Assembly: GCF_000027125.1 (NCBI RefSeq)
Contig: NC_017626.1
Source: Escherichia coli 042
Lineage (GTDB): Bacteria; Pseudomonadota; Gammaproteobacteria; Enterobacterales; Enterobacteriaceae
Length of the DNA: 64,000 bases
Strand: one strand, 5' to 3'
Below are positions 6,389 through 18,321 of the stretch, piece by piece. Numbering within the stretch: the first letter of the stretch is position 1; every line of letters starts with the position of its first letter. The position numbers and the translations under genes are program-made. The notes below the pieces were generated by a model. The model worked only from the letters and a program-made list of their open reading frames with translations. It was not told the DNA's origin and searched no databases.

Positions 6389-7076
6389 AACCGTTGGTTA
6401 ATTTCTCAAACTCTTCACAACCGGTATCAAACCCTTCCATACAGCTCAGGTTCAGCCAGTGCAGCGCCTTTTGCTTGTTCTTCTCGATAAAACCTTCTTC
6501 ACCGTTTAAGAACATCATTCCCGCCCAGTACTCGGAATAACCGGTTCGGGAAATCGCAGAGCTGCGTTTGAAATACCAGGTTGCCTTGTCATCGTCGGCC
6601 TTAATGCCCACGCCGTTGGCGTAAATCAAACCAAGCAGCATTTGGGCATCGACGGCAGAGTCGTTCTCCAGATCTTCCGAAGCGTTTTCTAACAGCGAAA
6701 TCGCCTTTGGATAATCCGGTTTACCCGCTTGCGTATTTACCAGAATATGCGCCAGCGTTACTTCACCTTCTTTACTCCCCGCTTGCGCTGCTTTCTCTGC
6801 AAGAACTTTTGCTTGTGGATAGTCCAGACTGACCGGATTGGTGATTTTGATCTGCGCCAACAGCGCGCAGGCATCAGCATCACCGCTGTCGGCGGCTTTC
6901 TGTGCCCAATATTCGGCTTTGCTCAAATCGCCGGAGCTAAACCAGCTGTCGGCAAGAAAATATTGTGCGCGTCGGTCCCCGGCCTCTGCTGCCTTTAAAT
7001 ACTGGCTGCCAGGCTCGGAGTCGTTCGCGTGGGCAAAGAATGTCAAAAACAACATCAATGCGATAATTTTTTTCAT
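6387..7076 (-). CDS. yjcO: Sel1-repeat (TPR-like) periplasmic protein
   Basis: 229 aa with signal peptide (MKKIIALMLFLTFFAHA) and repeated Sel1-like motifs; position between gltP and fdhF. Confidence 0.85.
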   Translation of the reverse strand: MKKIIALMLFLTFFAHANDSEPGSQYLKAAEAGDRRAQYFLADSWFSSGDLSKAEYWAQKAADSGDADACALLAQIKITNPVSLDYPQAKVLAEKAAQAGSKEGEVTLAHILVNTQAGKPDYPKAISLLENASEDLENDSAVDAQMLLGLIYANGVGIKADDDKATWYFKRSSAISRTGYSEYWAGMMFLNGEEGFIEKNKQKALHWLNLSCMEGFDTGCEEFEKLTNG

Positions 7077-7169
7077 TTTGATAATACGATTGGGTAGGGA
7101 GTAACCAGTATAAAGAGTTCGAATGGATAAAAAAACAGCCTCCGGAAGGAGGCTGTAGAAAGGACTGTA

Positions 7170-9317
7170 TTACGCCAGTGCCGCTTCGCGCAGGCGAGTT
7201 TTCAACTTGTTGTACTCGTCAATCACGTACTGCTCGGCGGCGCGCTGATCGGCGATCGACTCGACGCGCACGGCGCAGTATTTGTATTCCGGCGTTTTCG
7301 TAATCGGGCTTAAGTTTTCGGTAACCAGCTCGTTACAGGCACCAATCCACCACTGGTAGGTCATATAAATCGCCCCTTTGTTCGGACGATCGCTGACCTG
7401 CGCACGGGTGATAATTTTGCCTTTACGCGAGTGCACCCAAACCAATGCCTCATCTTCAATACCCAGACGTTTGGCGTCTTCGGTATTGATTTGTGCGTAG
7501 CCAGGTTCATCAGCCAGCGCCGCCAGTGCCGCACAGTTACCGGTCATCGAACGGCAAGAGTAGTGACCAACTTCACGCACCGTTGACAGTACCATCGGAT
7601 ACTCGTCGGTGAGTTTGTCGATTGGCGCTACCCAGTCGCAGGTGAAGAACTGCGCCAGACCGTTCGGGGTATCAAACTTCTCTTTAAACAGATAAGAAGT
7701 CCCCTGATCGGCATCTGAAGTATCGCGGCAAGGCCACTGAATGAAGCCCAGTTCGCCCATTTTCTCGTAAGTCGCACCGTAGAAATCCGGGCACAGATGA
7801 CGCAACTCATCCCAGATCTCCTGGGTGTTGTTGTAGTGCATCGGATAACCCATACGAGTGGCAATTTCACTGATGATTTGCCAGTCCGTTTTCAGATCCC
7901 ATTTCGGTTCAACTGCTTTGAAGAAACGCTGGAAGCCACGGTCAGCCGCAGTAAACACGCCTTCATGCTCGCCCCACGACGTTGACGGTAAAATAACATC
8001 CGCCGCCGACGCGGTTTTGGTCATAAAGATGTCCTGAACGATAACCAGTTCCAGATCTTCAAAGGCTTTACGTACTGCCGACAGCTCCGCGTCAGTTTGC
8101 AGCGGATCTTCGCCCATAATGTACGCGGCACGCACTTCGCCATGCGCTGCGCGGTGCGGCAGCTCGCTGATGCGATAGCCGGTATGCGCTGGCAGGCTTT
8201 CCACGCCCCAGGCTTTGGCGAATTTCTCGCGGTTAGCCGGATCTTTCACGTACTGGTATCCCGGATACGTATCCGGCAGCGCGCCCATATCGCAGGCACC
8301 CTGCACGTTGTTCTGACCACGAACCGGGTTTACACCCGCATGCGGCTTACCGAGGTTACCGGTCAGCATCGCGAGGCTGGTCAGAGAACGCACGGTTTCC
8401 ACGCCCTGGTAGAACTGGGTTACACCCATGCCCCACAGGATGGCGGCGCTTTTCGCCTGGGCATACATCCGTGCCGCCTGACGAATCTCACTGGCGCTGA
8501 CGCCGGTGATATCTTCAACCGACTCCGGCGTGTAGCCTTCAACGATTTTACGATACTCTTCAAAGCCTTCTGTACGGGAAGCGACGAATGCTTTGTCGTA
8601 CAGATTTTCTTCAATAATGACATGGCCCATCGCATTCAACAGCGCGATGTTCGAGCCGTTTTTCAGTGCAATGTGGATGTCCGCAATGCGCGCGGTTTCA
8701 ATTTTGCGCGGATCGCAGACGATAATTTTCGCCCCGTTACGTTTAGCGTTAATTACGTGATTCGCCACGATTGGGTGGGAATCCGCCGGGTTGTACCCGA
8801 AAACGAACACTAAATCGGTATTATCAATTTCGTTAATAGCATTGCTCATTGCGCCATTACCGACCGATTGGTGCAGACCTGCAACCGATGGGCCGTGTCA
8901 GACACGAGCGCAGCAGTCAACGTTATTGGTACCAATAACGGCGCGCGCAAATTTTTGCATTACATAGTTGGTTTCGTTACCCGTACCACGCGAGGAGCCG
9001 GTCGTCTGGATGGCATCCGGACCGTACTTCTCTTTGATGGCGCTCAGGCGCTCGGCAACGTAATTCAGTGCCTCATCCCAGGAAACAGGTTCGAGTTTGC
9101 CGCCACGCTGGCGACGGATCATGGGGGTTTTCAGGCGCGGGGTCAGGATCTGGGTATCGTTAATGAAATCCCAGCCATAATAACCCTTCAGACACAGGGT
9201 ACCCTGGTTGGTTTTCCCCTGCGCTGCCTCCGCCCGGACGATTTTGCCGTTATCGACGACCAGGTTGATTTTGCAACCTGATGCGCAATAGGGGCAAACC
9301 GTGACGACTTTTTTCAT
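7170..9317 (-). CDS. fdhF: Formate dehydrogenase H (selenocysteine/molybdopterin enzyme); in-frame UGA at 8898-8900 decoded as Sec
   Basis: ORFs 8898..9317 and 7170..8849 are in the same frame, separated only by TGA (complement of tca at 8898-8900); together 715 codons; N-terminal Cys cluster (CPYCASGC). Confidence 0.95.
8850..8897 (-). other. SECIS mRNA stem-loop directing selenocysteine insertion at the fdhF UGA
   Basis: Immediately 3' of the UGA on the coding strand: CACGGCCCAUCGGUUGCAGGUCUGCACCAAUCGGUCGGUAAUGGCG, which I recognise as the fdhF SECIS hairpin. Confidence 0.85.
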
Positions 9318-9368
9318 CGGTCTCGCTCCAGTTAATCAAATCACGCATACGCGCTCTCGACTACAGTA

Positions 9369-9384
9369 TGCATCTTTTATGCCA
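9369..9384 (-). promoter_or_regulatory. Sigma-54 (-24/-12) promoter of fdhF
   Basis: Minus-strand sequence TGGCATAAAAGATGCA matches the TGGCAC-N5-TTGCA class with conserved GG and GC, about 55-70 bp upstream of the fdhF ATG. Confidence 0.8.
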
Positions 9385-9439
9385 CATTTTATTTGGGGTC
9401 ATTCCCTGATATTACGGGCACTATTTATTCAAAACTCTG

Positions 9440-9500
9440 ACGAAAAACAGGCTGTCGTCAGTTTTGACGTGACGAAACGAAATACCGCGTGACAGCCATC
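9440..9500 (-). promoter_or_regulatory. Putative FhlA upstream activating sequence for fdhF
   Basis: Cluster of repeated CGTCA/TGACG motifs (tttcgtcacgtcaaaactgacgacag) roughly 100 bp upstream of the sigma-54 promoter; exact site boundaries not resolved. Confidence 0.45.
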
Positions 9501-9514
9501 ACGCGGCAGACATT

Positions 9515-10981
9515 TTATTTTTTCTCGACGACGGGACTTGCCTGATACCCGCCGCCCAGCGATTTCATCAACTGAATGCTTTGGATCACCCGGCGGCTGT
9601 CCAGCATCAGTAATGACATCTCCTCGGCAAGCACTGGCAACCGGGCTTCGGTGGCCTGTAAGCGGCTGGTTAAGCCGCGTTGATAGGCGGCCTCGGCAGC
9701 GCGCTGGGTGAAGCGCGTGGCTTCCACGCGTTCAGCCTGCATCTCTCGCTCGTCGTTGAGCGTTTGCAGACGCGTGCCGTTGACGGCAACGTCGCGCACC
9801 GCATTCAGCACTGACTGGTTGTAACGTTCAATCATCATGTTGCTGGCGGCGCGAGTGCCTTCGAGATTGGCATTCAACCGTCCACCGTCAAACAGCGGCA
9901 ATTTCAGACCCGGGATAAAGTTGAACTGGCGACTGGTTTTTTTGAATAAGGTATCCAGGTGGATAGAATCCAGGCCGAAAAACGCTTTGATATCAAAGCT
10001 CGGATAGAACAGCGCCCGCGCGGAATCCACCTGATCTAATGACGCCTGAACATACCAGCGCATAGCTTGCAGATCCGGGCGTCTGGCGAGCAACTCATAA
10101 GAGAGTGTCGCCGGAATACCGGTCTGGACTCGTGGTAATGCCACCGGTTTGATCTCCGGCATATCGCTGGCTCCCGCGCCAATCAATGCGCGCAGAGATT
10201 CTCTCGTTTCGGTGATTTGCCCTTTGACGGCAGCAATTTGTTTATCGACCGCCAGAATCTGTGCCCGCGCGCCGTGGAAAGGCACTTGCGCTTCCAGACC
10301 GTGCGCCACTTTACTCTGGTGCGCTTTTACCGCGTAATCAATCACATCGCGAGTTTGTTCTAACAGATCGAGCATCTGATAGCTGGCCTGCATACTGTAA
10401 TAAAGCTGCGCTACGCCCGTGGTCAGCGATAGCTCTACTGCTGCGGTTTCTGCCAGCGCGGCATTATGCGCGCCAATGGCAGCGGCAACCGCTGAGCGAT
10501 GCACACCCCACAAATCGAGATCCAGTCCGGCAAACAAACCTACTGTGGCTTCCGTATAGTACGGCCCGTCCATACCCAGTGCTGGCGCATCCATCGCATA
10601 AGGGCTTAAAAAGCCGTTCGCCGAGACACGTTGGCGGTTGAGCATCCCTAACGCTGCGACCTGTAATTGTGAACCGGCATCTAACAAATCGGCCTGCGAC
10701 TGCGCTTTTTCTTCCCGCAGTTTCGCTTCGGCGAGGGTGTGTGAACCACTTAGCGTCCGTTGGATCAGCGCATCCAGCTGCGGGTCATTGAGTTGTTTCC
10801 ACCACTGCGCCTGCGGCCAGCCGGAGCTGGCAAGATGAATATCATCGGCCAGTTTGATTTGTTCCGGTTTGAGCTGTTGATGAGGTGCAGAATCCTTACG
10901 TACCAGGGCACAGCCGGAAATCAGCGTCGTGCTGCCGAGAATGCTGCACAACAGCAGACGTGAAAGTTGACGATTGATCAT
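9515..10981 (-). CDS. mdtP: Outer membrane factor (TolC-like) of the MdtNOP efflux system
   Basis: 488 aa with lipoprotein signal peptide (LISGCA); OMF family; overlaps mdtO. Confidence 0.9.
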   Translation of the reverse strand: MINRQLSRLLLCSILGSTTLISGCALVRKDSAPHQQLKPEQIKLADDIHLASSGWPQAQWWKQLNDPQLDALIQRTLSGSHTLAEAKLREEKAQSQADLLDAGSQLQVAALGMLNRQRVSANGFLSPYAMDAPALGMDGPYYTEATVGLFAGLDLDLWGVHRSAVAAAIGAHNAALAETAAVELSLTTGVAQLYYSMQASYQMLDLLEQTRDVIDYAVKAHQSKVAHGLEAQVPFHGARAQILAVDKQIAAVKGQITETRESLRALIGAGASDMPEIKPVALPRVQTGIPATLSYELLARRPDLQAMRWYVQASLDQVDSARALFYPSFDIKAFFGLDSIHLDTLFKKTSRQFNFIPGLKLPLFDGGRLNANLEGTRAASNMMIERYNQSVLNAVRDVAVNGTRLQTLNDEREMQAERVEATRFTQRAAEAAYQRGLTSRLQATEARLPVLAEEMSLLMLDSRRVIQSIQLMKSLGGGYQASPVVEKK

Positions 10982-13029
10982 TGCGTGGCTCCTTGTACCT
11001 GTTCCTTGGCGGGCGTTAATGCCGGGGCTGTCCAGTCTGGCAAGCGGGCGAAAAGCTGGCAGACGTGTTGTTCCTGTTTTAATAAGGTGGGCAGGATGGC
11101 CTGCGAGGCGGGTGTCTCTTCAAGCGTTATTTGAGGAGAACGGCTGAGTGCGGTTGCCAGACCGGCAGCGTATTTCTCAAGTGCGTCGGCAAACTGACCT
11201 GCTCTGTCCGGCTGTAGTGCGTTATCCAGCGCCTGCGCCGAGTTCCAGGTTGCATCCCAGGCGTGAAGAATATCGCGGCCCTGACGAATAACCGTTTGCG
11301 AACGTTCAATCAGTAGAGCGCGTTCTTCGCTGTCCAGTTGACGCTCCAGCGCCACGCGTTGGAACATCTCTTCACAGGCATTAAACGCCGCATGCAGACC
11401 TATACGAATTTGCAGATAAGTGCGCAGAGCCGTGACTTCCTGCTGGCGTGGGATCCGCATTACTTTACTCAACATACCCAGCGCGCCAGCCAGTTTTTGC
11501 GGCAGTGTGCGCGCTTCACTTTCAGGCCAGACAAAGGTGTAAATCACCGCGGACACCACGGTACCAATGATGATACCCAGGGCGCGATCGCGAATTTCCA
11601 CCAGGTCGTACACTGGGCCAAAAACGTTTTCGAGCGTGGCGAGCGCGAAGGTGACCACCATCTGTGTGCCGATATAAGAAGAGCGTTCAGAGCTGGTGGC
11701 AATCCATGCGCCCAACAGGAAAATCGGTGCCAGCACAAACAGCAATTCGACAATATTGTCCAGCCAGGGCATGACCAGTAACGTGAATAACAGCGCCAGA
11801 ATTGCACCGAAGAAGGCACCGCCAAAACGCAGCGCCATTTTCTGATACGACGAACCAACATTCGGGTTAGCGACGATCACGCAGGTCAGCATACAGGTGT
11901 GAATGCCTTCCCAGTCCACGCCGCTGTAGAAGGTGTAACAGATCAAACAGGCGAGCAGCGTTTTTACCGCGTAGCGCATATAGTCTGGATTGGTAAAAGC
12001 GTCGGCGACCATTGATGGCGGTTTGGTGGCGGGCGTTGGCGGCGTATTCGGGTCCATCTGACCCAGTTGTAACAACGTCTGGCAGATATTCTCCAGGTTA
12101 CATTCCCGTGCCGCCATCGCTTCACTTTCAGTGATCCGCCAGTCGCTTTGCCAGCACTGACCTTCGGCAATGGCATGCTGCAGTTTGTTGATTTCTGAGG
12201 CTAATTTTTGCCGAAATTCAATAATTGCCTGAGAATCAGCAAAAGAGGTGGGATCGTAGCGATTCAGCGTCGAGTAAATGTAGGTTACCGTAGCCACACA
12301 GCTTTGCCACCATGCGCTCTGAGTTCGCCAGTTGGCATCGTCCGCGAGGCAAAAGACATTGAGTTTTTGCAGCGCCAGCGCCTCTCTTTCAATCCGCGTT
12401 TCGGGTAGCGGTGTGAGGCTGTCCGTCAGGTGGCTAATGGCATCATCAAGCCGATCATTAAGCGCCTGATGCATCTGCGTGATAGCGCGGCTGGGAAACC
12501 ACAGCACGCCGATTAACGTCATCAATAACGTCGGATAGAGGCCAACAACGATACACCACAGGGTTAAGCGCACGACCACTTCCGGATAGTCGAGCATGGC
12601 GGGGAAGGTTTGCCCGTAAATAGCGACAATGGCGACGGCGAAAAAGACCAGCCCCAACCGATGGGTGCGCATCAAAAACATACAGCCCATCAGGATCGGC
12701 CCGGCGATGATCAATCGGATCAACGGTTCGCCGTATGACCATTTGTAGATCAAAAACAGGCTGCCGATCTCCAGCATCGTGGCGACCACAAACAAGATCG
12801 CGACAAATTTGGTGTAAAACGCGTTCGACTGAATACCGTAAAACAGTACTGCCAGTGATAACGCCACAAAAGGGATCTCAAAAGTCATTGAGATCAGAAT
12901 CACCAGCAGGCAGCCTACCCAGAGTTGCATAGTCTGCGGCACGCGGCCTGGTCGCCGCTCGCTTAACTCTTCATGAAAGAACGCCAGCAGCCTGACCACC
13001 GGTAATGGCAGGGAGTTGAGCGCGCTCAT
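10978..13029 (-). CDS. mdtO: FUSC-family inner membrane efflux component
   Basis: 683 aa with two hydrophobic domains separated by a soluble region; recognised as YjcQ/MdtO. Confidence 0.9.
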   Translation of the reverse strand: MSALNSLPLPVVRLLAFFHEELSERRPGRVPQTMQLWVGCLLVILISMTFEIPFVALSLAVLFYGIQSNAFYTKFVAILFVVATMLEIGSLFLIYKWSYGEPLIRLIIAGPILMGCMFLMRTHRLGLVFFAVAIVAIYGQTFPAMLDYPEVVVRLTLWCIVVGLYPTLLMTLIGVLWFPSRAITQMHQALNDRLDDAISHLTDSLTPLPETRIEREALALQKLNVFCLADDANWRTQSAWWQSCVATVTYIYSTLNRYDPTSFADSQAIIEFRQKLASEINKLQHAIAEGQCWQSDWRITESEAMAARECNLENICQTLLQLGQMDPNTPPTPATKPPSMVADAFTNPDYMRYAVKTLLACLICYTFYSGVDWEGIHTCMLTCVIVANPNVGSSYQKMALRFGGAFFGAILALLFTLLVMPWLDNIVELLFVLAPIFLLGAWIATSSERSSYIGTQMVVTFALATLENVFGPVYDLVEIRDRALGIIIGTVVSAVIYTFVWPESEARTLPQKLAGALGMLSKVMRIPRQQEVTALRTYLQIRIGLHAAFNACEEMFQRVALERQLDSEERALLIERSQTVIRQGRDILHAWDATWNSAQALDNALQPDRAGQFADALEKYAAGLATALSRSPQITLEETPASQAILPTLLKQEQHVCQLFARLPDWTAPALTPAKEQVQGATQ

Positions 13030-14060
13030 TATTGTGGCTCAAGATTAGCGACTGCCGAAGCGCCGATGCGGAACATTTCCGGGTCAGGTTTATCAACCAT
13101 GATTTTGACCGGAAAACGCTGGGCAACGCGGACCCAGTTAATAGAACGAGACACTTTCGGCAGGCCGCCCAGCACCAGGCCGCCGTCATCCGGTAGCACG
13201 CCGTAGCCAATCGAATCCACTTTACCCTCGAAGGTTTTGCCGCTGTCGCTCATCAGGCGAATCGTTGCGGGTGTACCTGAGCGAATATTTTTCAGATCGG
13301 TTTCGCGGAAGTTGGCGATCACGTACCAGTGACGAGTGTCGATTAGGGTAAAAATTGGGCGCATGGCAGAAGCAAATTGCCCGACGGAGGTTTTGAGGGA
13401 AATGACCCGGCCATCAAACGGCGCGCGAACGGTCGCCATTTCCAGATGCAGTTTGGTCAACGCAATATCCGCTTCCACTGCCGCACGCTGGGCAACTAAT
13501 GCATCCACGCCGCTGACGGCGCTGGCGGCTGACTGCGCCTGCAACAATACGGCATTAAGATCGGCTTCTGCGGCGCGCTGCGCGGTTCTCGCGCGGTCAA
13601 CATCTTCCGCTGAGACGAAACCTTCTTTCAGTAATGGCTCGGTGCGGCGTAATGTATCACTGGCCTGTTTCGCGGCGGCACGGGCTTTTTCTACCGTGGC
13701 ATTAACCGAGTCGGCACCAAACTGTTGTGCGTCAACGCTACGCTGGGTGAGCATAATTTGCTTATCCAGCGCCGCGAGGGAGGCTTCGGCTTTCGCCAGA
13801 TTGGCTTCGTACGGGCGCGGGTCGATGCGGAACAGCAAATCGCCCTGTTTCACCGCCTGGTTGTCGGTGACCGCCAGTTCTACAATGCGACCGCTGACTT
13901 CCGGCACCACATCAATGGTATCTGCTGACGCGTAAGCGTCATTAGTTGATGGCGCACTGTCTACGCGCCAGATAACGAAAACAAGGGCAACCAGCGCCAA
14001 CGCAACCACTAACAGAGCAGGGAATTTACTGCGAGGAGCTTTTTTCGGCGTACTTTCCAT
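13029..14060 (-). CDS. mdtN: HlyD-family membrane fusion protein
   Basis: 343 aa; N-terminal membrane anchor followed by coiled-coil region; 1-nt overlap with mdtO start. Confidence 0.9.
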   Translation of the reverse strand: MESTPKKAPRSKFPALLVVALALVALVFVIWRVDSAPSTNDAYASADTIDVVPEVSGRIVELAVTDNQAVKQGDLLFRIDPRPYEANLAKAEASLAALDKQIMLTQRSVDAQQFGADSVNATVEKARAAAKQASDTLRRTEPLLKEGFVSAEDVDRARTAQRAAEADLNAVLLQAQSAASAVSGVDALVAQRAAVEADIALTKLHLEMATVRAPFDGRVISLKTSVGQFASAMRPIFTLIDTRHWYVIANFRETDLKNIRSGTPATIRLMSDSGKTFEGKVDSIGYGVLPDDGGLVLGGLPKVSRSINWVRVAQRFPVKIMVDKPDPEMFRIGASAVANLEPQ

Positions 14061-14078
14061 GAGCGCGTCTCAAATAGA

Positions 14079-14354
14079 TTAGAAAAATGCCAGCCAGAAC
14101 AGCATGGCGTAGAGAGCAAAAAGGGCGGTATAAATAATTCCGACAAATGCCAGATTGATATTTGCCCGCTGAATAATTCGCCTCGTGATGAGCGTCAAAA
14201 TAAGGCTGGCAATGGCGCAGAAAAACCAGCTGGGATAATAAGCGCCGATCACCGGGATTGCCGGAGATAATGAGCATCCCGAAACCATGAAGACGGGAAT
14301 TATCCAGACTGTTTTTTTGAGTTGCATCGCCATGCGAGAGAGAACTGTTGGCAT
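14079..14354 (-). CDS. ytcA: Small lipoprotein YtcA
   Basis: Start chosen at MPTVLSRMAMQLKK... (91 aa) within the 107-aa track ORF; lipobox (MVSGC); 18 bp upstream of mdtN. Confidence 0.75.
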   Translation of the reverse strand: MPTVLSRMAMQLKKTVWIIPVFMVSGCSLSPAIPVIGAYYPSWFFCAIASLILTLITRRIIQRANINLAFVGIIYTALFALYAMLFWLAFF

Positions 14355-14526
14355 ATTAAATACATCCTGTCTGCTGCGAACAATATCTGTAGTGAATATC
14401 AATATCCATTGAAGGCGTCAGTATGGCTATTTTCTCGATGAATAAAAATAGCTTTATTCAGCCACCGCATTCATAACTTATATATTTTATGTATTAATTT
14501 GTTGTATGTATTTTTAAAATAAATGC

Positions 14527-14552
14527 TTTTGGGGGCTTAAGCGCCCCCAAAA
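14527..14552 (-). terminator. GC-rich hairpin, likely intrinsic terminator after yjcS
   Basis: Inverted repeat ttttgggggcttaagcgcccccaaaa flanked by A/T runs, 11 bp past the yjcS stop. Confidence 0.6.
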
Positions 14553-14562
14553 GTGAGTGGCA

Positions 14563-16548
14563 TTAATTTGGGGTTACGATATTCACCCACAAATCGAAAT
14601 TATCCAGACAGGCAATAATTTCTTCCAGTTTCGCGCCATTGCCAATAATTTTGGCTTTCTTCGCTTTTACCAGATCCGCCATTTTGGCTTGTGCGGTCAG
14701 CACGGCGTGAAGATCTTCACGGCTGATGTAGAAAGAGGCGTTGGCTTCAGGTTGCAGCGTTTTACGGTAGTTAAGCACGCTATCGTTCAGCGTCAGGTTG
14801 AGGTTATCGCCGTTGCTCATATTGAAGTTCAGGCTGATATTCTTACCTGCGGCTTTCGCGCTATCGAGGCGAACGGCCATAAAGTCGAATAGCATTTCGA
14901 CCGACATTCCGCGAAGGGTGTCCGGGAAACCGGTGGAGCTGTGGCTGAACTTATGTACCCCTTCGCGCAGCTCTTTCGCGCCGGTCAGGTAGAAACCGCG
15001 CCAGGTGGCGGACTCGGCCTGATAGCCCAGCTGTTCAAAGTTATTCGCTTGCAGATTCTTCGCGACCTGGTCACCAGGGTTGGCGGCAATCACCTGTTTC
15101 AGCAGTTCTGCCGACCAGCGGTAATCACCTTGCTTGTTCGCTTCTTGCGCCAGGTTGATGACACGGGCAGAACCGCCCAGCGCCTGCACGTAACGTTTAC
15201 CCATCTCCACCTGACCATACGGATGCAGGTTAGCCGGGTTACCGTCGTAATAGCCAAGATAGAAGTTATACACCGCGCGGGCGTTGTGGCTGACAGAACC
15301 GTAATAGCCGCGGCTGGCCCAGTTATTGGCAAGCGCAGGCGGCAGCTTAATCATGTCGCCGATTTCATTCATGGTGTAGCCCTGGTTTGCCAGGTGCAGG
15401 GTCTGGTCGTGAATGTACTTGATGGTATCGCGATATTTACCAATATAATCATTGATATGCTTATTGCCCCAGACCGGCCAGGTGTGCGGCATAAACAGTA
15501 CTTCCGCGTCATTACCCCACATATCCAGCGTTTCGTTCAGATACTCGGTCCACTTGCTGGTGTCGCGGGTTTTCGCGCCGCGCAGAGTGTAGAAGTTGTG
15601 CAGGGTATGCGTGGCGTTCTCGGCGGTACACAGGGCTTTCAGAGCCGGAATATAGAAGTGCATTTCGGCTGGCGCTTCGCTACCCGGAGTCATCAGGAAG
15701 TCAAATTCCAGGCCGTCGATAATCATCTTCTCGCCAGTTCTGACGATAGTTTTAGTCGGTGCAATAATGCTCGGGTCGCCCGTTGCCAGCGTCACGCCCA
15801 GGCCGTTGCCCACGTTGCCTTGCGCGTTGTGCGGCAGTAACAGACCGTAAGAGTAGAGCGCACGGCGGCTCATGATGTTACCCGCCAGCACGTTTTCGCT
15901 GATGGCTTCGTCCATAAAGCCTGCCGGAGCGATCACCTGCACTTTGCCGGATTTAACATCCGCTTCAGAGATAATGCCTTTCACACCGCCATAATGGTCG
16001 GCGTGGCTGTGGGTGTAAATCACAGCAACAATCGGTTTTTGCGGACGATGCTGGAAGTAAAGGTCAAGTGCGGCTTTTGCGGCAGGCGGCGTCACCAGCG
16101 GGTCGATAACAATAATGCCTTTTTCGCCTTCTACAAATGTAACGTTAGAGATATCTTGGCCGCGCACCTGATACATTTTATCGGTGACTTTGAACAGGCC
16201 AGAAATACCGTTGATTTGCGACTGACGCCACAGGCTGGGGTTTACGGTTTCCGGCGCAGCGGCATTAATATCAAATTTGTAATCGTCTGCGCGGTAGTAA
16301 ACTTTACCGTTCGCATCACGCAGAATACCTTCATCCAGCAGCGGGGCGATAAATCCACGCTGGGCATCGTCAAAATCTTGACGATCGCTAAACGGTAATG
16401 ATTTGGCGTAATTCTGATTAATCTGTTGGGTATATTGAGTGGCGGCTTTCGCTTCCTCTTTCGCGTTAGCGGTATTTACCATCATGCCGCTGGCGGCAGT
16501 TAACGCAATAACAATCCTGCTCAAACGGAATAACCGAGAGTTATTCAT
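14563..16548 (-). CDS. yjcS: Alkyl/aryl sulfatase, metallo-beta-lactamase fold
   Basis: Signal peptide; HSHADH zinc-binding motif ([11 protein letters not shown]); start taken at the second in-frame Met region (MNNSRLF...); track ORF is 665 aa. Confidence 0.9.
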
Positions 16549-16800
16549 ATAAATCTCCATTTATCATTTATGTCGTAAATATGTAGTCCATGCAAAATAC
16601 GTCATTTGAAGCTGGCGTTATCATAATTGGGAATTTGCGACTTTAATAAGTGGAAGTGTGAGCGGAGCGAGCCATTTTATTAGGCATTTGTGCTGAAGAG
16701 GGAAAAGTACGCGAATTTATTATCTCTGTAAATAATATGAGGTATTTTATATATTTATTATATATATTGTACTTCGGCAAATACTGAGCACAATTAATCA

Positions 16801-17118
16801 ATGCAACCGGTGTTTCTTTTTAAAAAACGTACCGGAGCAATGGGCGGTCATGTCGCTGGCACCGCAGGATTCTGTGTTGCTGTGCCAACCTTTTATTCAT
16901 GGTCAATGAGTGAGGGGATTGATAAAGAAACCAGGTCGTCAGAGCGCACTGATTATCCGCATTACGCCAGTGACGTTGCACTGGCTTTTGGTTCACGAGT
17001 GGTTGGCCTCGAACTGGCAAAAATGATTGTGGATGCGTGGCTGGGCGCGCAGTACGAATGCGGTCGTCATCAACAACGCGTGGAGGCGATTACGGCAATA
17101 GAGCAGCGGAAAAATTGA
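16801..17118 (+). pseudogene. rpiB: Degenerate remnant of ribose-5-phosphate isomerase B (rpiB) with internal deletion and non-homologous 5' part
   Basis: 105 aa ORF contains SSERTDYPHYAS...VALA joined directly to FGSRVVGLELAKMIVDAWLGAQYE.GRHQQRVEAITAIEQR, which I recall as RpiB residues about 36-53 and 107-149; the catalytic middle is absent. Confidence 0.6.
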
Positions 17119-17186
17119 GATTCATCCACTACTTGCATGGATGAGTAATGACTAATATGGATAGAGTTTCTTTTTGAGGTTGGCTA

Positions 17187-17516
17187 ATGAAACGCTTTCC
17201 GCTATTTCTTTTATTCACCCTGCTCACGCTGTCCACCGTTCCGGCCCAGGCCGATATTATCGACGACACCATTGGCAATATTCAGCAGGCGATTAACGAT
17301 GCTTATAACCCTGACCGTGGGCGAGACTATGAAGATTCGCGCGACGACAGCTGGCAGCGTGAAGTGAACGACGATCGGCGCAGACAATATGACGATCGCC
17401 GCCGCCAGTTTGAAGATCGCCGCAGGCAGCTGGACGATCGCCAGCGCCAGCTTGATCAGGAGCGTCGGCAACTGGAGGATGAAGAGCGGAGAATGGAAGA
17501 TGAGTATGGGCGGTGA
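17187..17516 (+). CDS. yjdP: Secreted charged-repeat protein YjdP
   Basis: 109 aa; signal peptide (MKRFPLFLLFTLLTLSTVPAQA); tandem DDRRRQ-type repeats; GAGG RBS upstream. Confidence 0.8.
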   Translation: MKRFPLFLLFTLLTLSTVPAQADIIDDTIGNIQQAINDAYNPDRGRDYEDSRDDSWQREVNDDRRRQYDDRRRQFEDRRRQLDDRQRQLDQERRQLEDEERRMEDEYGR

Positions 17517-17550
17517 TGTTGAGTCTAGAGCAGGCATCGCCCCTCACCCA

Positions 17551-18321
17551 TCACTCCACCCCAATCTCCACCCCAATCTCCATCCCATCAAACCCCGCCT
17601 CAAACCCCGACGGCAGTGCGTTTTCCATCAGCCACGCATCAAACTGGTGGCTGATATGGGTCAGAATCACCCGTGGCGAGCGGATAACCTGATTCAGCGC
17701 AAGCACGGTATTTAAATCACAGTGATTACGCGGTGCATCCTCGCGCGGCGGGTGGCTGCAATCAATCACCATTACCTGTGGCTGATTATTGCGTAAAAAT
17801 TTCAGCGTTTTTTCCGGCAGGCCTGCGGTGTCAGACAGCCACGCCACCCGGCTATGTGCCGTTTCCAGTAAATAGCCGAAAGTGAGTTTCGAATGATTGA
17901 GCGGCAGCGGCGTGACCTGTAATCCCTGCAAATCAAACACTACAAACGGTTCCACCGTGTGGCTGAAATCAAGCAGGCCCGGATGTTTAAACAGATCGTC
18001 GCAGCCCTGTTCATCCGGCGGGCCGTAGACCGGGATCGAATCGCCCACGCCCCAGCGCAGCGGAAACAGCCCCTGCACGTGATCCATATGGTAGTGCGTC
18101 AGCAAAAACTGCTGGAACGATCCGGGCGACCAGCGATCGGCGAGATCGTGCAGCCCGGCGTCGATCAGGGTGATCGCGTCGTTAAACTTCACGACGCCGC
18201 TGCATGGCTGGCGGCGATACTGTGGTGAGCGCCGCGCTCTGACGCAGGCCGCGCACTCGCAGCCCCATGCCGGAACGCCCTGTGCGCCGCCGGTGCCGGT
18301 GAGCGTGAGGGTCAGACTCAT
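17551..18321 (-). CDS. phnP: PhnP, phosphoribosyl 1,2-cyclic phosphate phosphodiesterase
   Basis: 256 aa metallo-beta-lactamase fold (HYHMDH); last gene of the phn operon; C-terminus carries a 12-bp tandem duplication. Confidence 0.9.

Follow-up and report, generated by a model that had tools for sequence, protein, structure and literature searches.

Sulfatase genes beside the MdtNOP efflux pump of Escherichia coli 042 and its relatives: comparative evidence for a possible functional link

The genes mdtP, mdtO, mdtN, ytcA and yjcS of Escherichia coli 042, located in a 64,000-nucleotide (nt) stretch of contig NC_017626.1 (hereafter the window), encode the FUSC-type efflux pump YtcA-MdtNOP and the predicted periplasmic sulfatase YjcS. 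We propose, with a probability of roughly 0.55, that a functional coupling exists between yjcS and ytcA-mdtNOP despite their separate transcription, and that both would act on organic sulfate esters. Pumps of this clade adjoin sulfatases repeatedly: Enterobacteriaceae and Burkholderiaceae together show three arrangements, each with a different sulfatase that is unrelated or distant to the others, as would be expected of a functionally coupled neighbourhood, with about three independent events behind it. Three sulfatases in one slot beside one pump clade, in two bacterial families and with one case predicted, is the pattern expected of coupling combined with non-orthologous displacement. The original prediction had suggested a shared role of sulfatase and pump in the handling of amphiphilic sulfated compounds, and this idea gains weight from the two other non-homologous sulfatases that adjoin the same pump clade elsewhere. 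A full-text literature search that combined sulfatase with FUSC, MdtO or YtcA yielded no publication on such an association; as far as that search reaches, the hypothesis of sulfatase-pump coupling therefore appears new.

Sulfatase genes at the pump loci

About 120 pump loci, numbered with L below, were pooled from a genome-collection scan, exact-protein look-ups, plasmid records and a metagenome scan. The genome-collection scan with MdtO alone returned 19 loci and missed Salmonella enterica, in which the operon is present, so absence from that scan is uninformative. The metagenome scan used an alignment of 14 MdtO sequences, as one of 62 was too diverse, and the plasmid collection held mostly mislabelled chromosomes and Burkholderia megaplasmid contexts without sulfatases. 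In 43 loci, yjcS lies upstream of ytcA with a median gap of 217 nt, and these loci belong to Escherichia, Salmonella, Citrobacter freundii, Klebsiella grimontii, Pluralibacter, Pseudocitrobacter, Kluyvera and Superficieibacter. The order of yjcS and pump is therefore kept in all of these genera beyond Escherichia, and at least nine enterobacterial genera other than Escherichia have the conserved neighbourhood; the original prediction had named a lack of conservation outside Escherichia as a refuting observation. The far side of yjcS is variable between loci, and the yjcS-ytcA junction is constant.

By itself, conservation in Enterobacteriaceae could be inherited synteny. According to this explanation, yjcS and the pump would have no functional relation and would have stayed neighbours since the time of the enterobacterial ancestor; MdtNOP would serve as a general multidrug pump that is normally silent, and coincidence or hitch-hiking would explain the remaining sulfatase adjacencies. 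It agrees with the collinearity of the whole block phn - (variable) - yjcS - ytcA-mdtNOP - fdhF - yjcO - gltP across Enterobacteriaceae, with the separate terminators and promoters and the absence of a common motif described below, with the independent loss of yjcS in Kluyvera, with the replacement of a yjcS allele with breakpoints at the gene ends, and with the occurrence of sulfatases and pumps each on their own in other taxa.

Inherited synteny is less able to account for the occurrence of the pump beside other sulfatases. In Citrobacter sp. wls619 the pump lies elsewhere, with a type I sulfatase gene and a gene for a radical S-adenosylmethionine (radical-SAM) sulfatase maturase immediately upstream. 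A Citrobacter lineage and Pluralibacter carry the corresponding block of about 9 kb (aslA-like gene, aslB-like gene, ytcA-mdtNOP) as an insertion that separates maeB from eutS, two neighbouring genes in K-12; the entry of the block into the maeB-eutS spacer as one unit argues against mere synteny. The divergently oriented aslB is the upstream neighbour of the pump in this copy. At the amino-acid level, the aslA-like gene product is 84% identical to AslA of E. coli; the convergent order of the gene pair is likewise the same, and the enzyme has the Ser-type motif SSPTR. By contrast, aslAB of E. coli is located between hemY and a tRNA cluster without a pump. The arylsulfatase-plus-maturase pair AtsBA of Klebsiella is of the same atsBA/aslAB kind. 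On Caballeronia plasmids, AslA-like sulfatases are paired with a formylglycine-generating enzyme and the pump is absent.

The third arrangement was found on a metagenome contig (L090, 64% G+C), with 46% identity between its pump and MdtO of E. coli and with Paraburkholderia and Caballeronia as the nearest named relatives. The contig carries a co-directional cluster of a radical-SAM sulfatase maturase gene (anSME), a type I sulfatase gene, ytcA, mdtN, mdtO and mdtP. As an advance prediction, we checked Burkholderia sp. THE68 (62% MdtO identity with the contig), and the same six-gene cluster was present as predicted; its gaps are 162, 114, 30, 7 and 1 nt, and the flanking genes of the two clusters differ. 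The Burkholderiaceae sulfatase is 30% identical to the AslA-like one and has the motif STAGR instead of SSPTR. Both type I sulfatases are Ser-type, which fits the adjacent maturase, and all three sulfatase types have signal peptides. The MdtO tree places the Burkholderiaceae group among the nearest outgroups of the enterobacterial clade.

After clustering of MdtO at 80% identity, sulfatase-linked loci were present in 14 of the 16 clusters with at least 45% identity to E. coli MdtO and in none of the 14 informative clusters at or below 41%. All sulfatase-type genes in 1.58 Mb of pump loci are located directly 5' of ytcA or are a tandem copy of such a gene, and no sulfatase gene was found elsewhere in about 1 Mb of pump flanks. 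A sulfatase or maturase gene would be the immediate 5' neighbour in well below 1% of random placements by a rough estimate. These numbers speak against coincidence under inherited synteny, as does the recurrence with three unrelated sulfatases, one of them predicted beforehand. At more distant loci, the four-gene module ytcA-mdtN-mdtO-mdtP was intact wherever inspected; a Pfam scan of 115 neighbour open reading frames (ORFs) from such loci did not have a sulfatase among the 25 families displayed of 92, and none was found at the inspected loci of Burkholderia and Paraburkholderia pumps at about 35% identity.

Several observations weigh against functional coupling. The pump is kept and yjcS lost in three Kluyvera-like lineages (L011, L018/L078, L019), and an allele of yjcS that is 17% divergent stands beside pump genes that are 97-99% identical, which indicates separable histories. 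Partners also occur apart: E. coli's own aslAB has no adjoining pump, and YjcS-family sulfatases elsewhere lack one, e.g., SdsA1 of Pseudomonas aeruginosa, which stands with a LysR gene, and yraS of Yersinia ruckeri (PMC4207315). The more distant pumps of the family lack a sulfatase, and three sequences went into our local profile for type I sulfatases. No more than about three of the arrangements with a sulfatase are independent, and a single ancestral linkage could underlie both the aslAB-type and the Burkholderiaceae one. The two units of E. coli are separated by a strong terminator and by the pump's own conserved promoter region, none of the reported pump substrates is a sulfate ester, and the evidence for coupling is comparative throughout. 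Weighing both sides, we consider inherited synteny possible, if doubtful. Whether the MdtNOP clade as a whole is a dedicated partner of periplasmic sulfatases, forming with them a two-step module to use or survive organic sulfate esters, appears to us an even question. Our own initial interpretation, synteny without a functional link, was dropped after the sulfatase-maturase-pump locus of Citrobacter sp. wls619.

The canonical mdtN of Pluralibacter is split by a frameshift at an identical position in a metagenome-assembled genome (L007, 8977-9998) and in a metagenome contig (L067, 640-1661). Pluralibacter with the split mdtN also has the aslAB-linked copy of the pump (L009/L070). Either decay of the canonical copy or an error common to both assemblies may explain the split.

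Sulfatase, pump and their possible joint role

YjcS combines the Pfam domains Lactamase_B (PF00753), Alkyl_sulf_dimr (PF14863, E = 1e-56) and Alkyl_sulf_C (PF14864, E = 6e-35). Its residues 30-661 match PDB entry 4PDX, which is YjcS itself, and its metal motif HSHADH aligns with the motifs of 4PDX and SdsA1. The protein thus shows the features of the type III alkylsulfatases of the SdsA1/YjcS family, i.e., an N-terminal metallo-beta-lactamase domain with HxHxDH, a dimerisation domain and an SCP-2-like C-terminal domain. The Sec signal peptide comprises residues 1-29 and ends in ANA before KE; the crystallised protein begins at residue 30. Activity of YjcS on sodium dodecyl sulfate (SDS) is credited to Liang 2014 as cited in PMC6107682. 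In its three domains, its metal motif and its predicted export to the periplasm, YjcS resembles SdsA1, SdsAP/PSdsA, Pisa1 and YraS of Y. ruckeri, and the solved type III alkylsulfatase structures are matched with E of about 1e-182 to 4e-213. Unlike yjcS, genes of the SdsA1 type have no pump nearby and are found singly or beside a divergent LysR regulator (PMC4207315 for YraS); for a YjcS-type sulfatase, pump adjacency is specific to Enterobacteriaceae.

A second allele class of yjcS exists in E. coli, with 82.7% DNA and 86% protein identity (window 14600-16400 versus L037 10001-11986). The neighbouring ytcA, mdtNOP and fdhF are 97-99% identical and the breakpoints coincide with the ends of yjcS. 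Pseudocitrobacter YjcS is the closest match of the divergent allele (88%), and about 3% of complete genomes fall into the matching identity band. In Superficieibacter electus (L022, 4278-8354), two full tandem copies of yjcS, about 80% identical to that of the window, lie directly 5' of ytcA, and the same arrangement occurs in a metagenome contig (L069, 79-4127).

The pump proteins fit a tripartite efflux system of the FUSC/PET or aromatic acid exporter (ArAE) family, with a FUSC permease, an adaptor of the HlyD/EmrA type, a small protein of the YtcA type and an OEP/NodT factor. MdtO matches PF04632 (FUSC, E = 9e-17), PF13515 and the MdtO equivalog NF008510 with 1361 bits (cut-off 821). MdtN is of the HlyD/EmrA type (TIGR00998, 419 bits) and is anchored by a single N-terminal transmembrane helix. 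MdtP has the OEP domain PF02321, scores 271 bits with TIGR01845 and 1026 bits with the equivalog NF007390, and carries the lipobox ISGC with Cys24. YtcA matches Pfam Ytca (PF17090, 57 bits) and, below threshold, DUF1656, and has two transmembrane helices and the lipobox VSGC with Cys27. Pfam and NCBIfam thus support each of the earlier gene labels. The descriptions that had been given from sequence also hold, namely a FUSC-type exporter with membrane fusion and outer-membrane partners, a small lipoprotein for YtcA, and a secreted alkyl sulfatase for YjcS in view of its signal peptide and domains.

A sequence search found no relative of MdtO in the PDB. An AlphaFold (AF2) model from an alignment of 62 homologues (predicted local distance difference test, pLDDT, 92; predicted template modelling score, pTM, 0.89) predicts a pair of transmembrane bundles, with a cytoplasmic helical domain after each of them. 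Its only probable fold matches in the PDB are plant ALMT anion channels (e.g., 7voj, 7vq3 and 7w6k) with probability 1.0, a template modelling (TM) score of 0.45-0.51 on target length, about 370 aligned columns, a weak E of 1.7e-3 and 14% identity; Pfam also reports ALMT matches on MdtO relatives. The ALMT/QUAC channels are homodimers, whereas MdtO is one chain with two repeats that works with an adaptor and an outer-membrane channel, and the modelled resemblance is at the level of the fold, without a claim of membership. MdtNOP has been labelled as major facilitator superfamily (MFS) in reviews (PMC11762307, PMC8277102) and as resistance-nodulation-division (RND) in PMC8672772. We rejected both candidates: MdtO has no such Pfam or NCBIfam match, and MFS chains reached a probability of at most 0.38 and a TM score of about 0.1. 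These labels are unsupported by sequence, and the recurrent mislabel is to be corrected to FUSC/ALMT-like. Since MdtO has no ATPase domain, transport is presumably driven by the membrane potential or the proton-motive force.

The rate of divergence of MdtO is about double that of MdtN and MdtP, with 64-76% versus 80-90% identity between genera and a ratio of nonsynonymous to synonymous substitution rates (dN/dS) of 0.12-0.15 versus 0.05-0.08. The divergence is centred on both predicted cytoplasmic helical domains (residues 240-330 and 570-660). In E. whittamii, MdtO is 88% and MdtN 99% identical.

The gene order of ytcA-mdtN-mdtO matches that of AaeXAB, the E. coli efflux system for p-hydroxybenzoate and aromatic carboxylic acids (FUSC/PET or ArAE, TC 2.A.85), i.e., a small two-helix membrane protein, an EmrA-like adaptor and a FUSC permease. 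The sequences are very distant: YtcA and AaeX share 37% identity over 63 amino acids (E = 1e-5), MdtN and AaeA 29% (E = 2e-35), and MdtO and AaeB 24% over 157 amino acids (E = 2e-4). Unlike aaeXAB, the mdt operon has its own outer-membrane factor gene, mdtP, an added lipoprotein signal in YtcA and a sulfatase neighbour, and it lacks an adjacent LysR regulator such as aaeR. Fusaric acid resistance clusters (FusA-E/FuaABC) of Burkholderia and Stenotrophomonas likewise comprise an OEP channel, a FUSC permease, a small DUF1656-type protein and an HlyD-type adaptor, and differ from the mdt pump in gene order and substrate, which is fusaric acid; to our knowledge, no sulfatase association has been described for them.

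The layout paralogous to aaeXAB could also mean that the pump serves an unrelated relief from aromatic acids or metabolites as AaeAB does, and that sulfatases gather beside it as accessory genes at recombination hotspots. The yjcS-yjdP interval does vary, with the als operon in K-12, nothing here, the island OI167 in enterohaemorrhagic E. coli (EHEC) and a sugar island in C. freundii (PMC10128022), and the yjcS allele has been replaced. This variation lies on the far side of yjcS, whereas the yjcS-ytcA junction is constant, and the presence of the Burkholderiaceae six-gene cluster in two different contexts is left unexplained, thus we consider this alternative improbable.

MdtNOP, formerly YjcRQP, has not been assigned a physiological function or an experimentally confirmed promoter (PMC11762307). 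Null mutants have raised sensitivity to puromycin, acriflavine and tetraphenylarsonium (PMC11762307, PMC8277102), and in a tolC-deleted strain mdtOP expression confers resistance to pyrrolomycins and armeniaspirols. Both groups of compounds, against which de-repressed MdtOP is reported to guard, are phenolic, and methylation of the armeniaspirol phenol abolishes the antibacterial activity (PMC8672772). The reported substrates point to lipophilic weak acids or organic cations, not to sugars or metals.

From the observed gene identities, operon boundaries, families, fold and recurrent adjacency, we infer a possible sequence of events. The sulfatase would cleave the ester in the periplasm and free sulfate, while the pump, as a four-part envelope-spanning system of MdtO, the EmrA-like MdtN, the NodT-type channel MdtP and the AaeX-like YtcA, would remove an amphiphilic organic anion tied to sulfate-ester chemistry. 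Candidate substrates are alkyl sulfates such as SDS, gut aryl sulfates (p-cresyl and indoxyl sulfate) and humic sulfate esters in soil. The slot 5' of ytcA would have been filled by YjcS, an AslA-like and an AtsA-like sulfatase in different lineages. The version that we tentatively favour is export of the freed phenolic or alkanol aglycone combined with sulfate scavenging, on account of the predicted periplasmic action of the sulfatases, the organic-anion transport of the FUSC/ALMT type, the phenolic nature of the MdtOP compounds and the in-vitro sites for a sulfur-utilisation regulator and for NtrC/sigma-54 at yjcS. Slightly less probable, in our opinion, is that the pump expels ester that had entered the cell.

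If the coupling is true, an orphan "multidrug" pump, which comes to light only after mutational activation in a tolC mutant background (PMC8672772), would gain a physiological role. The link to three kinds of sulfatase makes the purpose of MdtNOP testable with cheap substrates. It also suggests that bacteria may couple the cleavage of sulfate esters to the export of the leftover amphiphile, which bears on gut aryl sulfates, detergent tolerance and sulfur scavenging in soil.

Transcription units and regulatory sequence

In E. coli, yjcS and ytcA-mdtNOP are two transcription units as judged from their sequence, because yjcS has its own terminator and the pump its own conserved 5' region. The terminator (CTTTTGGGGGCGCTTAAGCCCCCAAAAG then CATTTATTTT) lies 9 nt past the yjcS stop and has an 11-bp G+C-rich stem followed by TTTATTTT, as in a canonical intrinsic terminator; for the surrounding 76 nt (14500-14575), the folding energy is -22 kcal/mol (z = -4.4). 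Klebsiella, Pluralibacter, Salmonella and Kluyvera have a hairpin in the corresponding position, with a different sequence. Past mdtP, a hairpin with an 11-pair stem including 6 G-C pairs is terminator-like and would mark the end of the ytcA-mdtNOP unit.

In the 170 nt between the yjcS terminator and ytcA, alignments revealed blocks with stronger conservation than the ytcA coding sequence. They comprise the box ATAAGTTATGAATGCGGT (14464-14481), whose first A is fixed at -127 from the ATG, the likely -10 region AATAGCCATACTG, and the block ATATTCAC..GATATTGTTCGCA (14375-14399), which adjoins the Shine-Dalgarno sequence. These putative promoter or regulatory elements (about 130 nt) persist in Kluyvera-like loci from which yjcS is missing, and also accompany the aslAB-linked pump at its different place in the chromosome, which indicates that they belong to the pump. 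Each occurs once in the window, with no recurrence upstream of yjcS or elsewhere. RNAalifold gave -1.7 kcal/mol and no covariation for the ytcA leader; with no support for RNA structure, we read the conserved blocks as DNA-level signals. An Rfam scan of 7000-18000 (E ≤ 1) found only the selenocysteine insertion sequence (SECIS) of fdhF and nothing in intergenic regions, and in a consensus sigma-70 scan sites were no more frequent than in shuffled sequence, with none in the two spacers. Outside Escherichia, a perfect palindrome, TATTG-N4-CAATA, is present just 5' of the ytcA Shine-Dalgarno sequence and is degenerate in E. coli (L010, L011, L013, L018 around 8549-8674). The box and the palindrome are probably an operator for some regulator; no regulator gene adjoins the pump in the Enterobacteriaceae loci.

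Upstream of yjcS, the conserved blocks are GCACAAATGCCTAA, CTCACA, TTATGATA and AAATGGAGATTTAT-ATG. An RpoN/NtrC site was detected by genomic SELEX in the alsK-yjcS spacer of K-12 (PMC8743547) and yjcS is a SELEX target of SutR (PMC5934670); the pump is not listed in these publications. One transcriptome list includes yjcS as changed, and the mdt genes are not listed (PMC10920338). A search with the conserved boxes of the pump found them only 5' of ytcA, and no cis element common to yjcS and ytcA-mdtNOP was found. A marbox-like GCA-N..-CT-A pattern can be seen by eye in both upstream regions; it was set aside together with a sigma-54 GG-N10-GC pattern, as a judgement on either would require a proper model. 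The original caveat that there is no direct sequence evidence of co-regulation therefore stands, given the yjcS terminator, the separate pump 5' region and the lack of a common motif.

A single operon of yjcS and ytcA-mdtNOP, read from the yjcS promoter with the hairpin merely attenuating read-through, would require one promoter and no terminator between the genes; we consider it very unlikely, since the co-directional genes with a gap of 208 nt, the recurrent order of sulfatase, hairpin and ytcA, and the co-directional Burkholderiaceae sulfatase and pump (gap 114 nt, hairpin without a T-run) are outweighed by the canonical terminator of E. coli, by the roughly 130 nt conserved 5' of ytcA that persist without yjcS or beside the divergent aslB, and by the fact that laboratory de-repression required a deletion fusing mdtOP to the als promoter (PMC8672772). 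The Burkholderiaceae hairpin, with a G+C-rich stem of 12-13 bp, lies directly past the sulfatase stop (L126, 8542-8655; L090, 8543-8650), i.e., at the position of the yjcS terminator in E. coli, and may set the ratio of sulfatase to pump transcript.

Gene layout and flanking features

The interval of the original prediction, 9515-16548, coincides exactly with the outer coding sequence (CDS) ends, i.e., the 3' end of mdtP and the start codon of yjcS (Table 1). It is E. coli chromosome, and nearly all complete E. coli genomes have all five genes annotated. The query 9000-17500 (8.5 kb) was matched in 5419 of the 5426 complete E. coli genomes, with 99.6% identity in the top match and 97.5% in K-12. 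The CDS set was carried over exactly from NZ_OZ547136, and the ORF list, the annotation of two RefSeq genomes and K-12 concur. The genes, families, structure and arrangement are already known from textbook E. coli and new annotation is unneeded. All five genes are under purifying selection (dN/dS 0.01-0.38). The coding sequences of mdtN and mdtO overlap by 1 nt and those of mdtO and mdtP by 4 nt, and an 18-nt spacer separates ytcA from mdtN. None of six antisense ORFs of 111-299 amino acids in the region has a Pfam match, and a repeat search gave matches at chance level or in AT-rich sequence, without mobile-element ends.

Table 1. Coordinates of genes and sequence features at the yjcS-mdtNOP locus (positions in the window)
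Feature	Position	Strand	Description
mdtP	9515-10981	-	488 aa; outer-membrane factor, NodT/OEP family; lipoprotein
mdtO	10978-13029	-	683 aa; inner-membrane exporter of the FUSC/PET family
mdtN	13029-14060	-	343 aa; periplasmic adaptor (membrane fusion protein), EmrA/HlyD type
ytcA	14079-14354	-	91 aa; small lipoprotein, AaeX-like fourth subunit
yjcS	14563-16548	-	661 aa; predicted periplasmic Zn-dependent type III (metallo-beta-lactamase fold) alkyl/aryl sulfatase
ytcA-mdtNOP putative promoter/5' region	14355-14525	-	from alignments across loci
yjcS intrinsic terminator	14526-14553	-	11-bp G+C-rich stem
terminator-like hairpin and T-rich tail	9483-9508	-	directly past the mdtP stop codon
yjcS upstream region	16549-16772	-	own conserved blocks; collinear with K-12 to 16772

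The neighbours are fdhF downstream of the pump, and a truncated rpiB, yjdP and the phn operon upstream of yjcS. The fdhF gene (7170-9317, minus strand) contains an in-frame TGA, at which the ORF list splits it (8849/8898); directly past the TGA, 8851-8905 is a full-length match to Rfam SECIS_2 with 87 bits.

The allose operon is absent from the window (region 16773-17118). The K-12 segment 4306823-4313661, from alsK to alsR together with the 5' part of rpiB, is replaced by 208 nt (16773-16980) without a K-12 match, and this junction occurs in 1567 of the 5426 complete E. coli genomes. What is left of rpiB is annotated as a 105-amino-acid "RpiB family" ORF, in which RpiB sequence is confined to about 45 residues at the end. 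The allose site carries OI167 in EHEC and a similar sugar and two-component island in C. freundii, which points to an insertion hotspot (PMC10128022).

Between gltP and yjcO, the segment 6123-6385 (about 263 nt) gave five overlapping alignments to K-12, at four staggered offsets about 113 nt apart. K-12 thus appears to have more copies of a short tandem unit in this spacer than E. coli 042.

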